Below, piece by piece: positions 2,936 through 13,699 of a DNA stretch of 64,000 nucleotides. The translations under genes were made by a program, and so were the position numbers. This DNA comes from a virus: IMG/VR virus record IMGVR_UViG_3300010413_002950, positions 26,088 to 90,087 of that record. One strand, given 5' to 3'. The notes below the pieces were generated by a model. It worked only from the letters and a program-made list of their open reading frames with translations. It did not search any database and was not told the origin of the DNA. Position 1 is the first letter of the stretch. Each line of letters begins with the position of its first letter.

Positions 2936-3894
2936 ATTCTCACATTCCTACCAGCTTCAAAAACTACAGCATTACGGTAATAGCTATGAGCTTGAAACAC
3001 ATTTAGATCTCCAGGATCTGTATTCGCTGGCAATCTTGCTACTCTAAGGTCATCGCAAATTGCGACCAGCTTATTGCAAATGGCTATAGCTGAATAGGGT
3101 ATTTGCAAATCAACTTCAGAATCATTATCCATCATAACTACTATTGTCTTTAGATTGAGCTTTAATAATAGCGCTTTCTGAGGATCGTGCAATTCTTTTC
3201 CGAATAAGCCTAAAGCATTAATTCCAAATGTTGCTAATTTCAAGACATCCATTGGCCCTTCTACAAGAGCTACTTCTCCATTAGTAATCTCGCTATAGAT
3301 CTGGCTCCAGCCATATAGCATTCTTGCAAATTTAGTACCCTTGGGATGAAAATACTTTGGCTCACGATCATCTACAGCTCTAGAAGTAAATGCAAATCCA
3401 TTTGGACAAGAGAAAGGGAATATTATTCTATTTCTGTAATCGCCCTTATTGCAAAAGCCTAAGTAATACCTAAGAGCTATTTCTCTTTCAATGCCACGAT
3501 CTACAAGGTATTTAGGCATTTGCCATTTCTTGCCATCAAATACAGAAATAAATTCATCTGGCGGTAATATCTCAATCATTTCTTTCTCTTTAGCTCTCAG
3601 GATATTCTTGTATCTATCCCAATCTTCATCTTGATGGTTATTTTGCCAACGGAATTTTACAACCTCTCTAAATCTTTTTAGCTTTATAGCTTTGTAGCTT
3701 TCGCCTGTAACTTCAGCTACTAGCCAAATGATATCACGATTTCTTTTATCACACTTGAAGCAAGTCCAATAACCTTCTTTCTGATGAATGTAAAGATGTT
3801 CAGCCTTACCGCAAAATGGACAATCGCAAATTAGTGATGGACCAGCTCCTCTGCCATTTAGTTCAGCTTTAGCCCATTCTAAGAAGCTATTCAC
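2932..3894 (-). CDS. dnaG: DNA primase (Zn finger + TOPRIM)
   Basis: CPFCG...CFKC zinc finger; RIIFPF; LVEGPMD and MMDND TOPRIM motifs. Confidence 0.92.
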   Translation of the reverse strand: MNSFLEWAKAELNGRGAGPSLICDCPFCGKAEHLYIHQKEGYWTCFKCDKRNRDIIWLVAEVTGESYKAIKLKRFREVVKFRWQNNHQDEDWDRYKNILRAKEKEMIEILPPDEFISVFDGKKWQMPKYLVDRGIEREIALRYYLGFCNKGDYRNRIIFPFSCPNGFAFTSRAVDDREPKYFHPKGTKFARMLYGWSQIYSEITNGEVALVEGPMDVLKLATFGINALGLFGKELHDPQKALLLKLNLKTIVVMMDNDSEVDLQIPYSAIAICNKLVAICDDLRVARLPANTDPGDLNVFQAHSYYRNAVVFEAGRNVRI

Positions 3895-11015: not shown

Positions 11016-11330
11016 TTACAAGTTAATGAACCTATTAAAGCCACTTAGTAAACACCTATACTGTAATTTTACAATACTAGGCTGATATGGCTTTTCAAAT
11101 TCTATATCTATATAGCCCTTTCTTTTAAGCTCTTTCAATACATCATATAACCCCCTATAGGTATAACCTAGATCTTCGGCTAATTTGCTCATACCTCTAG
11201 CTAATTCCTTATCAGAATAGAGGTGTAGCCGGATCCAAACAGCAAAAGCTGAAGATTTTAGCTCCTTATAGGCTACCTCTATAGTCTTGTGATTGCTTTT
11301 AGGGCTGTATTTATATTTTACTCTAAGCAT
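11016..11330 (-). CDS. winged HTH DNA-binding protein
   Basis: MSKLAEDLGYTYRGLYDVLKELKRKGYI helix-turn-helix pattern. Confidence 0.75.
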   Translation of the reverse strand: MLRVKYKYSPKSNHKTIEVAYKELKSSAFAVWIRLHLYSDKELARGMSKLAEDLGYTYRGLYDVLKELKRKGYIDIEFEKPYQPSIVKLQYRCLLSGFNRFINL

Positions 11331-13665
11331 AATTATCCAGTATTTCTATATCGAATTCTTTCTCAGATCGATAAACTGATAGTCTATCTCTAGAGTGCTG
11401 AGCAAAATATTTATGTGTCATATCTGCAAAATCAACAAACACTGCATCTTTTTTACCTTTACAAAGTGTAAGACATCGTAGCCTCTGGTACGTGGTTTTT
11501 ATGTTTTTGCCACCTTCTGCGTTGATCACACAATCAATTTCTGGGATATCTACGCCCTCAGATAAAACAGTGCCGATAAGCGCAGAGATATGGCCTTTTC
11601 TAAAGCTCTCTATAATCTCTGCTCTTTTAGGTGCTGGGGTAGCTCCAACAATTCGCTCACAGGAAATAGACGAATTCATCATTTTAAAAAGCGTATCTAC
11701 TTGCTCCAACCTATTGGATACAATTACCACTTTTCTATTTTCAGTCTTGATTAACTTTTCCGTTATATCTGCAATTATCCTATTGCGAATTGGATTGCCC
11801 CAGATAGCAGCTTTAGGCAATTGCTGACTCCACCATTCATCAGATAGATCTGGCTCTCTAATTGGTATGATTAGAAATTTAGGCTTTACAAGATACCCGA
11901 GCTGAATTAGCTCGCTAACTGAAATATCTATAAGGATATCCCCAGCGCAAGCTCTAAGCCAAATAACCCCCAATTCTTCTTCATTAGAATTTTCCAGAAA
12001 TACTGTAGCAGAAAGGCCGATTTTGTAAGGAGCTGGACAGTCAAGAAGGATATTTCTCCATGCATCTCCAGAACTAAAATGATGGCAATTATGAACCAGT
12101 ATTTTATTTGCAAAATATGTATGTGTGTTTTCTACTTCTAAATTATAGACATAACCGTCTGGACACAATTGTTTAAATTTGTCAGAACTTCTTGATTTGA
12201 GAATCTCAACACTTTCCACCCTTGACCAATTAAGAAATTGTCTTTCCTTCGATCCGCAGCTTTTACCCTTAAAGTATTGTGACTTGAACCGTCTACCTCT
12301 ATCGCAATTTTTAATATTGGGTTCGCAATGTCTATCTTGTAATGACTCGGTAATCCACCCTTTACACCACATTTCGTTGGAAGAATAAATTCCATTTCCC
12401 ACCCAAGTGTTGTTGCCAATAGTAGTTGGGGCAGCGTTGGCCCTCTCCCATTTCCACCTTGAATTGGCGGCTTCCATCCATTTATTCTGTGTATTGTAGA
12501 AACCTTTGCTCGTATTTCTGGTCTTTTCATTGGATTGTTTTTTTTCATTCTTTCTGATGCATATTTCTTGTTTGTTTTTGCCATTGTTTCTGAAGAACGT
12601 TTGCTTCGATATGCTTTTGAACATTCTTTTGAACAATAGGCGTGACCATATCTTCTTAATTGATCTAATTTGCATCCACTTACAAATATTTCTTTTTTGC
12701 ACCAAAAACAATTTGTTTTTATTTCTTTTTTCATATGTGGTGTATAGCACCATATCACTGGTTGTCAAATCAATAGCGTTTTTCCAACCTGTTTGTGTAA
12801 AAATTGGATGTGTTGGTGTACAGGTTAGAACTTTATTATCTGTTTTGATTATTACCAATTGTTTGCATTTATTGCGAAAGATGTTGATTACCTTTTGTTT
12901 TTCTATTTTTTTTGTGTTTTCATTATAAGATGTTACATATTCACCAACCTTAATTGATTCTATTGGCCTTTCATCAATTATTGTTCCAGCTGGAAAACAT
13001 TCATCAACAAGCATAAGATCAACATTGTTTATAACATTGTGATATTCTGGCGTATTGCGTTTTGCTAATAGCGTCTGAGCTGTAGAAACGGTTATATCAG
13101 ATGGTTCCCATACTCCATCACCCAATATACCTATTTCTATTTCTAGGGCCTTAGACAATGCTTTCTGGCTTTGGTAGAGTAGCAATTGAGAAGGTACGAT
13201 GAATAGCGTTCTAACCCCTAGCTTTGCAACAATGGCAGAAGCAACCAACGTCTTCCCCCCTCTGGGCGGGATCTTGATAATTCCCCTACCAACAGACTTG
13301 CTATACCCATACGGCTCAGTAGCTAATTCTAGAGCTTCTTGCTGATAAGGCCGTAAGCCAGTAACTTGCTTCAATTCTAGTGTACGTTTAGGATAAACTC
13401 GTAGATCCGTCAATTGCCATTCAGCTCCATTTTTTTCTATTATGCTAATAATGTTTTCAGCTAATCCAGCTGGAGATTTGAATAGTTTTTCAGATTTGCT
13501 ATAGGTAATGAGATACTTCTTTCCATCCCATCTACCTTCTTGATAAGCTGTTGTATGCTGATAGCCACTTACATAATAGCTGGTTTTTTCTCGCATTTGC
13601 CCAAATATAGGACCAGGAACATTTCGGATATAAACATAATTGTTGTCTAGCGTTATAGATATCAT
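11323..13665 (-). CDS. superfamily 2 (UvsW/XPB-like) DNA helicase, intein-containing
   Basis: LRPYQ, Walker A PPRGGKT, DE|CHH motif II split by the intein, GLSAT, LSEGVDIP, QRLR. Confidence 0.93.
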   Translation of the reverse strand: MISITLDNNYVYIRNVPGPIFGQMREKTSYYVSGYQHTTAYQEGRWDGKKYLITYSKSEKLFKSPAGLAENIISIIEKNGAEWQLTDLRVYPKRTLELKQVTGLRPYQQEALELATEPYGYSKSVGRGIIKIPPRGGKTLVASAIVAKLGVRTLFIVPSQLLLYQSQKALSKALEIEIGILGDGVWEPSDITVSTAQTLLAKRNTPEYHNVINNVDLMLVDECFPAGTIIDERPIESIKVGEYVTSYNENTKKIEKQKVINIFRNKCKQLVIIKTDNKVLTCTPTHPIFTQTGWKNAIDLTTSDMVLYTTYEKRNKNKLFLVQKRNICKWMQIRSIKKIWSRLLFKRMFKSISKQTFFRNNGKNKQEICIRKNEKKQSNEKTRNTSKGFYNTQNKWMEAANSRWKWERANAAPTTIGNNTWVGNGIYSSNEMWCKGWITESLQDRHCEPNIKNCDRGRRFKSQYFKGKSCGSKERQFLNWSRVESVEILKSRSSDKFKQLCPDGYVYNLEVENTHTYFANKILVHNCHHFSSGDAWRNILLDCPAPYKIGLSATVFLENSNEEELGVIWLRACAGDILIDISVSELIQLGYLVKPKFLIIPIREPDLSDEWWSQQLPKAAIWGNPIRNRIIADITEKLIKTENRKVVIVSNRLEQVDTLFKMMNSSISCERIVGATPAPKRAEIIESFRKGHISALIGTVLSEGVDIPEIDCVINAEGGKNIKTTYQRLRCLTLCKGKKDAVFVDFADMTHKYFAQHSRDRLSVYRSEKEFDIEILDNYA
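12138..12734 (-). CDS. Vsr/DUF559-type PD-(D/E)xK endonuclease nested in the +1 frame inside the intein
   Basis: CFWC...YCSKEC zinc motif, NUMOD3-like basic segment (KKNNPMKRPEIRAKVS), YKIDIA...AIEVDGSSH...DRRKDNFL...GWKVLRF catalytic domain. Confidence 0.88.
   Translation of the reverse strand: MKKEIKTNCFWCKKEIFVSGCKLDQLRRYGHAYCSKECSKAYRSKRSSETMAKTNKKYASERMKKNNPMKRPEIRAKVSTIHRINGWKPPIQGGNGRGPTLPQLLLATTLGWEMEFILPTKCGVKGGLPSHYKIDIANPILKIAIEVDGSSHNTLRVKAADRRKDNFLIGQGWKVLRFSNQEVLTNLNNCVQTVMSII
12741..12768 (-). promoter_or_regulatory. putative internal promoter for the nested endonuclease
   Basis: TTGACA-N16(ending TGC)-TATACA, 6 nt upstream of ATG 12734; same geometry as the early promoter family. 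Confidence 0.6.
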
Positions 13666-13670
13666 GCCAT

Positions 13671-13699
13671 ATAATAAAGCAATTAATATACAATATCAA
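13671..13699 (-). promoter_or_regulatory. sigma70-like promoter for the replication operon
   Basis: TTGATA-N17-TATTAT 5 nt upstream of the helicase ATG. Confidence 0.55.

Follow-up and report, generated by a model that had tools for sequence, protein, structure and literature searches.

The stretch of DNA analysed here, the window, comprises 64,000 nucleotides (nt) of the virus record IMGVR_UViG_3300010413_002950, and all positions below refer to it. We have found that its UvsW-like SF2 helicase gene is interrupted by an intein, and that a second gene, for a homing-type endonuclease, is written over the same intein DNA in the +1 frame. Overall, intein and overprinted endonuclease gene very probably form one composite selfish element, located at the Walker B motif (motif II) of the phage helicase. 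A first-pass annotation of this DNA, made from the letters alone, had suggested such a dual-coded mobile element with the nuclease produced as a separate +1 protein. Comparative sequence evidence supports this suggestion, since the layout and the phase are conserved, the nuclease is under purifying selection and appears to have start signals of its own, the element seems to have been transferred recently, and empty alleles coexist with occupied ones. The genes concerned all lie on the minus strand, and their features are collected in Table 1.

Table 1 Features of the helicase gene, its intein and the nested nuclease gene (positions in the window; aa, amino acids; ORF, open reading frame; pLDDT, predicted local distance difference test score).
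Feature	Position	Strand	Basis
UvsW-like SF2 helicase, one contiguous 780-aa ORF including the intein	11323..13665	-	ORF list and Pfam
N-extein, 222 aa, ends ...LMLVDE (Walker B / motif II)	13000..13665	-	
Class-1 intein, 304 aa, helicase residues 223-526, CFPAGT...VHN, between DE and CHH	12088..12999	-	
N-terminal Hint splicing lobe, intein residues 1-92	12724..12999	-	AlphaFold2 pLDDT 93-98
Spacer in the helicase frame, predicted to be disordered, intein residues 93-252; the same DNA forms the main part of the nuclease gene	12244..12723	-	
C-terminal Hint splicing lobe, intein residues 253-304	12088..12243	-	AlphaFold2 pLDDT 84-97
C-extein, 254 aa and stop, starts CHHFSSGD	11323..12087	-	
Homing-type endonuclease gene, 198 aa, +1 frame, ATG 12734, TAG 12140..12138	12138..12734	-	
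Zinc-ribbon-like CxxC...CxxxC, nuclease residues 9-38	12621..12710	-	Motif columns
Helical segment SETMAKTNKKYASERMKKNNPM, nuclease residues 48-69, most conserved	12528..12593	-	Homologue alignment
Vsr-like / DUF559 catalytic domain, nuclease residues 94-198	12141..12455	-	VIA-align, invariant columns
Dual-structure stretch, nuclease C-terminus and first strands of the C-terminal splicing lobe	12141..12243	-	Both AlphaFold2 models
Candidate promoter TTGACA, 16 nt ending TGC, TATACA; nuclease ATG 6 nt on	12741..12768	-	Consensus match
Candidate promoter TTGATA, 17 nt, TATTAT; ends 5 nt before helicase ATG	13671..13699	-	Consensus match

The intein and the nuclease gene nested in it

In Pfam, the helicase matches ResIII (E = 5.3e-18), Helicase_C (7.5e-17) and UvsW_N (1.4e-5). 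The intein that the first-pass annotation had placed in its motif II is confirmed in position and in kind. The Intein_splicing profile is matched at 47.6-47.8 bits, above the cut-off of 35.8, and the class-1 catalytic set is complete, with Cys1, the TPTH motif (T61, H64), H303-N304 and a Cys at +1. Among 45 intein homologues, C1, T6, H64 and N304 are invariant. The insert is in frame at a conserved motif and is absent from a close helicase homologue, P0001. We have further modelled the intein in the helicase frame with AlphaFold2, using the 45 homologues as the alignment. In the two splicing lobes, almost all ten-residue blocks have a pLDDT above 90, and the model resembles mini-inteins and bacterial intein-like domains (29 PDB chains at E <= 0.001; template modelling score on the target 0.79 against Mtu RecA, 2imz). 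Residues ~95-250, which had already been described as lacking a recognisable fold, show a pLDDT of 43-50 and no secondary structure. As judged by its site, residues, profile and predicted fold, the insertion is a class-1 Hint-fold intein, and it should be able to splice.

The nuclease gene lies wholly within the intein, in a frame one base downstream of that of the helicase, and this frame is open for 208 codons from stop to stop. Its start, length and extent are as first reported, except that it ends at TAG and not at TAA. DUF559 matches the protein at E = 2.7e-12 (47 bits, cut-off 20.6), and matches every one of 54 nuclease homologues. The zinc motif (CxxC..CSxxC) noticed earlier is well conserved, as C9, C12, C34 and C38 are each present in at least 90% of these homologues, and weak matches to zf-FCS occur in 12 of the 54. 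In the helical segment that follows, M63, N67, P68 and M69 are invariant in the homologues, and it was from this segment that the blastn matches to Vibrio phages came; it is presumed to be a DNA-binding region. The label NUMOD3-like, once given to a basic segment of this protein, is not supported. No NUMOD family matches the window nuclease in Pfam at E <= 0.1, and none is among the 25 families most frequently matched by the 54 homologues.

A Vsr/DUF559 nuclease had been proposed for the C-terminal part, and this assignment agrees with the structure comparisons as well as with the Pfam match. The AlphaFold2 model, built with the 54 homologues, has a mean pLDDT of 92 and consists of a small strand-and-helix head resembling a zinc ribbon, long helices and a C-terminal alpha/beta domain. 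By VIA-align, the last of these is matched by the DUF559 protein 3hrl (Z 11.9, root-mean-square deviation (rmsd) 1.2, 81 residues), by the catalytic domain of the homing endonuclease I-Bth0305I (3r3p; Z 10.2, rmsd 2.4, 85 residues, ~21% identity) and by Vsr (1cw0; Z 9.4). D135, E146, D148, H152 and D161 are invariant in the 54 homologues and present in the window nuclease.

The 3' end of the nuclease ORF overlaps the C-terminal splicing lobe by ~103 nt. Only in this stretch of ~35 codons is structure predicted in both frames, with the conserved motifs GW.VLRF.N.E in the nuclease frame and RVES.EI in the helicase frame.

Two open frames under different selection

Relatives of the nuclease were collected from IMG/VR, where the nuclease as query returned 5 loci and a four-sequence alignment led to 90 confirmed loci, the best 80 of which were kept (including the first 5). 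Of the 80, 68 keep the host frame open over at least 350 codons (393-1322) across the midpoint of the nuclease, whereas the other sense frame is open for at most 48 codons in these loci. The nuclease stands in the +1 phase relative to the host in all 68 and in the +2 phase in none, and this phase recurs at 30-60% protein identity. The junctions are mostly ..DE/CFPAGT ... VHN/CHH, where slashes mark the intein ends. A single stop is present in the host frame of one of the 68 (L068).

Within the intein of the window, the helicase frame contains 0 stops and the third sense frame 33. Because the phase is +1, the helicase frame can acquire a stop only if a nuclease codon NNT precedes AA, AG or GA. 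At such at-risk third positions the window nuclease has T in 0 of 65 cases, compared with 49 of its 132 other codons; in the other long ORFs of the window, 40% of codons end in T. With the nuclease protein fixed and the codon usage of the window, the analytic probability of a stop-free helicase frame is 2.4e-14. Synonymous resampling of the nuclease ORF gave no stop-free frame in 50,000 trials (mean 22 stops, minimum 10), and neither did 50,000 synonymous permutations within the ORF (mean 15.3, minimum 7). That is, a double ORF by chance is rejected, in line with the argument of the first-pass annotation.

The same statistics have been calculated for 59 distinct overprinted homologous copies. 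T occupies 0 of 4231 at-risk third positions in them, compared with 2588 of 8602 elsewhere, so that the overprinted element consistently avoids T where it would be harmful to the host frame. Permuting the copies synonymously leads to 4.5-19.4 expected host-frame stops per copy (mean 11.8), and only 1 of 11,800 permutations was stop-free. Split host genes serve as a natural control: over the nuclease, the host frame contains 25 stops in L041 and 15 in L055.

We have also compared the substitutions in the two frames. In 8 phylogenetically independent close pairs, differences at the first, second and third codon positions of the nuclease number 232, 193 and 386. The ratios of non-synonymous to synonymous substitution rate (omega), calculated by the Nei-Gojobori method for 7 pairs, are 0.08-0.30 for the nuclease frame in the core of the overlap and 0.03-0.26 for the exteins, and the apparent values for the helicase frame over the nuclease DNA are 0.71-3.3. 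These comparisons indicate that the nuclease protein is under purifying selection and that the helicase-frame polypeptide there is constrained only to be stop-free. The last ~35 codons, with predicted folded elements in both frames, should be an exception. The earlier claim of selection on both frames thus holds for the nuclease, and for the helicase frame it is reduced, outside these codons, to the avoidance of stops. All NNT/NNC codon pairs are synonymous (checked in table 11), so the nuclease pays no cost at protein level for keeping the helicase frame open.

Recent transfer and coexisting empty alleles

Between the window and the IMG/VR contig of L001/L089, 1 of 823 aligned bases of the intein differs, yet the N-exteins are only 84.7% identical. 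Per 100 nt away from the junction, the identity between L089 and the window falls through 98, 93, 85, 79 and 76%, as a co-conversion tract would lead one to expect. With the N-extein as query, IMG/VR returned a single contig, which was already known.

A search with the C-extein found 129 helicase homologues, and of the 120 listed, 9 carry an intein. The closest intein-less ones among those listed are P0001 (476 aa, DEIHH) and P0003 (474 aa, DEYHH); the length of P0001 is exactly 780 minus 304, and its C-extein is 97% identical to that of the window. The window N-extein is a mosaic, as its last 32 aa are identical to those of P0002 and its distal part groups with the intein-less P0001. Over helicase residues 51-100, the identities are 41/50 between the window and P0001, 49/50 between P0002 and P0003, and 34/50 between the window and P0002. 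Next to the intein, over residues 191-222, they are 32/32 between the window and P0002, 24/32 between the window and P0001, and 24/31 between P0002 and P0003. From this four-allele mosaic it follows that there are two helicase lineages, each with occupied and empty members, and the occupied alleles of both have the intein and its immediate flanks in common.

The stretch is present in 20 metagenome runs from 7 studies, mostly labelled as sediment (marine, mangrove), and we have compared it with the assembled contigs of 4 of these runs. Among contigs from other studies, those of X3 and X4 cover the whole intein with 0 gaps and with 2 and 138 differences, respectively, and a contig of X2, covering 12500-13107 only, is identical to the window with 0 gaps. 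None of the run contigs has an indel within 12088-12999, which answers the earlier concern about compensating indels. A second contig of X3 joins 12084 to 13031 via 34 other letters in place of 946 nt. As 946 minus 34 is 912, the length of the intein, this contig is intein-free; translated manually, it reads ..DLLIADE-L-HH, an empty allele in the same sample as the occupied one. Among cultured Vibrio phages, megablast found no empty alleles, and all 8 records have the intein.

In close pairs among the relatives, synonymous divergence (dS) is far lower in the intein than in the exteins (for L062/L069, 0.05 compared with 0.73 and 1.16), although this comparison overstates recency somewhat, because the second frame depresses dS in the overlap. 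The raw identity gradient at the junction is not affected by this depression. What the present window adds is this gradient together with the mosaic of four alleles and the finding of empty and occupied alleles in one sample. On these sequence grounds the element looks actively mobile, with unusually clear signs of recent homing.

Start signals and proposed working of the element

An ATG lies upstream of the first CxxC in 52 of the 54 homologues with a recognisable zinc motif, mostly within 13 codons. A Shine-Dalgarno-like core is found at -18 to -4 in 25 of 51 loci, compared with 91 of 1020 control ATGs in the same host genes, an about five-fold enrichment whose Fisher P of 1.5e-12 is optimistic because the loci are related. 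Matches to a sigma-70-like promoter of at least 9/12 occur upstream of 29% of nuclease starts and 8% of controls. In the window, a Shine-Dalgarno motif precedes 31 of 53 long minus-strand ORFs, but it is lacking at the nuclease ATG. The helicase ATG has none either, and it shares with the nuclease ATG the geometry of a candidate promoter directly upstream. Since both ATGs stand close behind promoter-like sites without a Shine-Dalgarno motif, leaderless expression of both genes is plausible by this argument from consensus, and this phage may commonly make use of leaderless messages.

The element could then work as follows. The splicing domain of the intein would consist of its first ~92 and last ~52 residues, separated by a disordered spacer of ~160 residues whose DNA is filled by the nuclease gene, with its zinc ribbon, helical DNA-binding region and Vsr-like catalytic domain of DUF559/EDxHD type. 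The helicase mRNA would be translated through the spacer, and the intein would splice out in cis to restore DE-C-HH. The nuclease would be made separately from ATG 12734, in this phage probably from a leaderless message of an internal promoter, and in about half of the relatives with the help of a Shine-Dalgarno motif instead. It would cut intein-less helicase alleles (DE-I/L/Y-HH) near the insertion site, and repair off the intein-bearing allele would copy the intein, the nuclease gene and some flanking sequence.

Besides the bias of dS mentioned above, several points speak against this working. No Shine-Dalgarno motif precedes ATG 12734. Its candidate promoter was found by a looser scan and agrees with the -10 consensus at only 4/6 positions (TATACA); a stricter sigma-70 scan of the window does not list it, because the rule demands T at the last -10 position. 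Both enrichment tests use related, non-independent loci. For the nuclease, Foldseek against PDB gives no match at E <= 0.001 (best E 0.027), so the fold assignment depends on VIA-align and Pfam. In addition, splicing, separate translation from ATG 12734 and site-specific cleavage are steps that we infer.

The lack of a Shine-Dalgarno motif at the nuclease start in the window is also what might be seen in a silent relic, that is, a vertically inherited mini-intein with a long linker and a nuclease that is dead or no longer made. Such a relic is unlikely, however, in view of the low omega of the nuclease frame, the five invariant acidic and His residues that the window retains, the 99.9% identical intein in an 85% identical helicase, the junction gradient and allele mosaic, and the empty and occupied alleles of one sample.

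A programmed +1 frameshift near the A-rich run 12734-12700, leading to a fusion of N-extein, intein-N and nuclease, could make use of the helicase-frame sequence GAA AAA AGA AAT AAA AAC AAA, which lies exactly at the start of the nuclease ORF. Nevertheless, the A-run is not conserved among relatives, and the upstream ATGs and the enriched Shine-Dalgarno cores described above speak for initiation and not for fusion. Moreover, the free-standing nuclease of L029 and those of the split genes L041 and L055 share the N-terminus without having any upstream frame. We therefore regard frameshifting as quite improbable, and separate translation of the nuclease from its own ATG as the preferred reading.

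Host genes and other states of the nuclease

Besides ResIII/DEAD helicases, the hosts of the overprinted loci comprise helicases of the SNF2 (L060) and RecQ-like (L077) types, the large terminase of L050 and, in L052 and L068, AAA+ proteins that resemble clamp loaders. Where the junction fits the DE pattern, the insertion lies at or adjoining the Walker B acidic residues; the junction in the terminase differs. The presence of the overprinted unit in L050, L052, L060 and L077 suggests that it jumps among nucleotide-binding sites of different genes.

The single host-frame stop of L068:2522-4663 (3482-3484) is near the nuclease start, and it could reflect a very recent fracture, a sequencing error or read-through. 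In L004 / L022, the first ~450 aa of the helicase contain a second, upstream intein at Walker A (GSGK/C...THN/T), which carries the in-frame LAGLIDADG-type motif LAGLIDSDGY. One helicase gene therefore hosts both a canonical and a non-canonical intein.

Three relatives (L041:2948-5167, L042 and L055:2861-4825) are truly fractured helicase genes with the nuclease between the halves and its phase unchanged. In them, a stop closes the intein-N half, and the intein-C half begins at a Met of its own, directly ahead of the RVES.EI strand. It could be asked whether the window gene works in the same way, with two half-helicases whose split-intein halves are joined in trans, as in the genes of Dassa et al. 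(2009). The genes stand in the same order, the nuclease is of the same family and its 3' end likewise overlaps the intein C-lobe, and true split versions do exist among the relatives. Yet the window gene is a single ORF, with neither a stop after intein-N nor a separate start of intein-C: its intein contains 0 helicase-frame stops against 15-25 in the split relatives, and there is no Met before the strand where these have one. A fractured-gene working is hence very improbable here, and the window gene is better read as a contiguous intein acting in cis.

The nuclease is also found in other states. In L029:3501-5790, it is free-standing, directly upstream of an intein-less SF2 helicase whose start it overlaps and whose DECH is intact; this recalls free-standing homing endonuclease genes beside their target gene. 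L088 is a distant free-standing copy. In L081-L087 (e.g. L082:1953-4124), a related zinc-ribbon and DUF559/Vsr domain is in frame within a contiguous intein, the host being a phage Mu-F-like head morphogenesis protein with the junction HPNC/FID...VHN/CRC. This in-frame VSR-like intein nuclease may also be unreported, as the preprint of Gosselin et al. (2025) lists such nucleases only with split inteins or in antisense.

Such in-frame relatives, together with A-rich homopolymer runs near the nuclease start, could prompt the idea that two compensating indels displace a truly in-frame nuclease in the window, but we have rejected this artefact as next to impossible, because a nuclease in frame would leave the central helicase frame non-coding and filled with ~15-22 stops where there are none, and because the contigs of other studies are gap-free over the intein, an independent contig in IMG/VR agrees with the window at 822 of 823 bases, and 68 of 80 loci at 30-60% protein identity have the same phase.

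Comparison with known systems

Gosselin, Arsenault and Gogarten (2025, bioRxiv 10.1101/2025.01.02.630785) describe actinobacteriophage inteins with a nuclease gene in another frame or on the other strand, namely LAGLIDADG and VSR-like genes in antisense and endonuclease VII-like ones on the same strand in 'frame 3'. The hosts are DNA polymerase, minor capsid, terminase and thymidylate synthase. The first out-of-frame case goes back, according to these authors, to Gorbalenya 1998, and the general architecture, a nuclease gene out of the intein frame, is thus already known. Like their inteins, the present one is contiguous and has intact splicing blocks, its host-frame centre lacks a fold, its DNA also contains a full nuclease ORF, and there are signs that horizontal transfer continues; the proposed origin, a free-standing nuclease gene invading an intein, is common to both. 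They also propose that inteins jump between nucleotide-binding sites of different genes. Unlike theirs, the VSR-like gene here is on the sense strand in +1 phase, and the hosts are SF2 helicases (also SNF2, RecQ, terminase and clamp-loader), mostly not of actinophages. VSR-like nucleases are, according to these authors, otherwise known only with split inteins.

In the cyanobacterial dnaX intein of Phillips, DeSimone and Gogarten (2026, bioRxiv 10.64898/2026.09.14.751524), dN/dS has been determined per frame for an out-of-frame LAGLIDADG gene. Both systems have an overlapping second ORF under purifying selection, a raised apparent dN/dS in the host frame, and intein-bearing and intein-free alleles together in one population. 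The dnaX intein differs in its LAGLIDADG nuclease, its bacterial chromosomal host gene and its phase ('+2ORF').

Dassa et al. (2009, PMC2677866) reported inteins split into halves, with a free-standing gene for a Vsr-like or GIY-YIG endonuclease lying in between, and SF2 helicases are not among the hosts in their list. With these fractured genes, the window shares the nuclease type, the one-strand order of host-N, intein-N, nuclease, intein-C and host-C, the overlap of the nuclease 3' end with intein-C coding, and a host in phage DNA metabolism. In the fractured genes, the upstream half ends at a stop, 27-51 nt are non-coding, and the downstream half has its own Met, whereas in the window the host frame stays open without such a Met and the intein is contiguous.

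I-Bth0305I, for which Taylor et al. (2011, PMC3239194) named the 'EDxHD' homing endonuclease family, has a Vsr-like catalytic fold and an N-terminal non-catalytic DNA-binding region, and the window nuclease is predicted to have the same fold and a putative region of this kind. The two also agree in conserved acidic and His residues, compared as a set and not position by position. The Glu, Asp, His, Asp set of the family is present here as E146, D148, H152 and D161 (54 sequences). Both nucleases are associated with a self-splicing element, in each case in a phage gene of DNA repair or replication. I-Bth0305I differs in that it belongs to a recA group I intron and contains two motifs of NUMOD type; the window nuclease has no NUMOD match in Pfam, and a zinc ribbon and a conserved helical segment instead.

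The ShiLan insertion in actinophage DNA methylases (Arsenault, Gosselin and Gogarten 2025, PMC11855218) contains a hidden out-of-frame HNH endonuclease. It resembles the window element in having a nuclease hidden in another frame, an open host frame and evidence of active homing, and in having been missed by annotation. On the other hand, it has no detectable splicing domain and remains as a loop of the host protein, while the window insert is an intein that should be removed by splicing.

The literature search found no contiguous helicase intein with a Vsr-like gene on its sense strand in the +1 phase, the supplementary tables of the 2025 preprint being outside that search. The form seen here, with a Vsr-like gene on the sense strand in +1 phase at the Walker B of helicases and other NTPases, appears to be undescribed in the searchable literature, and it is common.

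The constant phase and its consequences

A simple reason for the constant phase is offered by the genetic code. In the +1 phase, any host-frame stop can be removed without changing the nuclease, because NNT and NNC are synonymous. In the other phase, stops would involve NTA/NTG codons including ATG and so should not always be avoidable. Shared ancestry could also be the cause of the constant +1 phase (68 to 0). A joint reading, which we put forward tentatively and at somewhat less than even chances, is that the +1 overprint is a normal and stable state in a large family of Walker-B-site inteins, that its phase is driven by the code, and that the nuclease lineage switches between states. The family would include SF2, SNF2 and RecQ helicases, the terminase and the clamp loader, and the overprint would be no rare accident. 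The +1 overprinted inteins may then be the missing contiguous counterpart of Dassa's fractured genes. If the joint reading is true, one nuclease lineage moves freely among free-standing, split-gene, overprinted and in-frame states, and same-strand overprinted homing nuclease genes are to be expected almost solely in the +1 phase.

The arrangement is of interest in that a selfish nuclease gene and a self-splicing intein share DNA without cost to either at protein level. Through one homologous nuclease it also links three arrangements that are kept apart in the literature, namely nuclease genes that are free-standing, fractured genes whose inteins are split, and full inteins. Small Vsr-like enzymes and tolerant intein insertion loops could possibly be of use in the engineering of inteins or site-specific nucleases.

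Cultured phages carry the element as well. Searching 50,697 cultured-phage records by tblastn gave 40 matching ones, of which 37 are from Vibrio phages, 2 from Corynebacterium phage phi673 and 1 from Pseudomonas phage MR14. Six of the records have been frame-checked (Vibrio phages CP-T1, 103E44.1, 159E43-1b and 1.088.O, phi673 and MR14), and all have a contiguous coding sequence (CDS) with the nuclease in +1; two of the six have 52-58% G+C. Under the match, only a helicase or a hypothetical protein is annotated in all 40 records and the nuclease ORF never, and their product names mention neither nuclease nor intein (e.g. JQ177061 gp10, MG324353 gp43, MT104474 gp44). Consequently, a whole class of homing endonucleases is hidden from standard gene callers. 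Some host CDSs in these records are named 'coil containing protein' or 'hypothetical protein'.

One further contig of X4 (record 25, 5.7 kb) matches only two short and conserved pieces of the nuclease gene, 12187-12222 and 12498-12563, with a diverged stretch of equal length between them. In all likelihood it comes from another genome that carries a different nuclease of this family.

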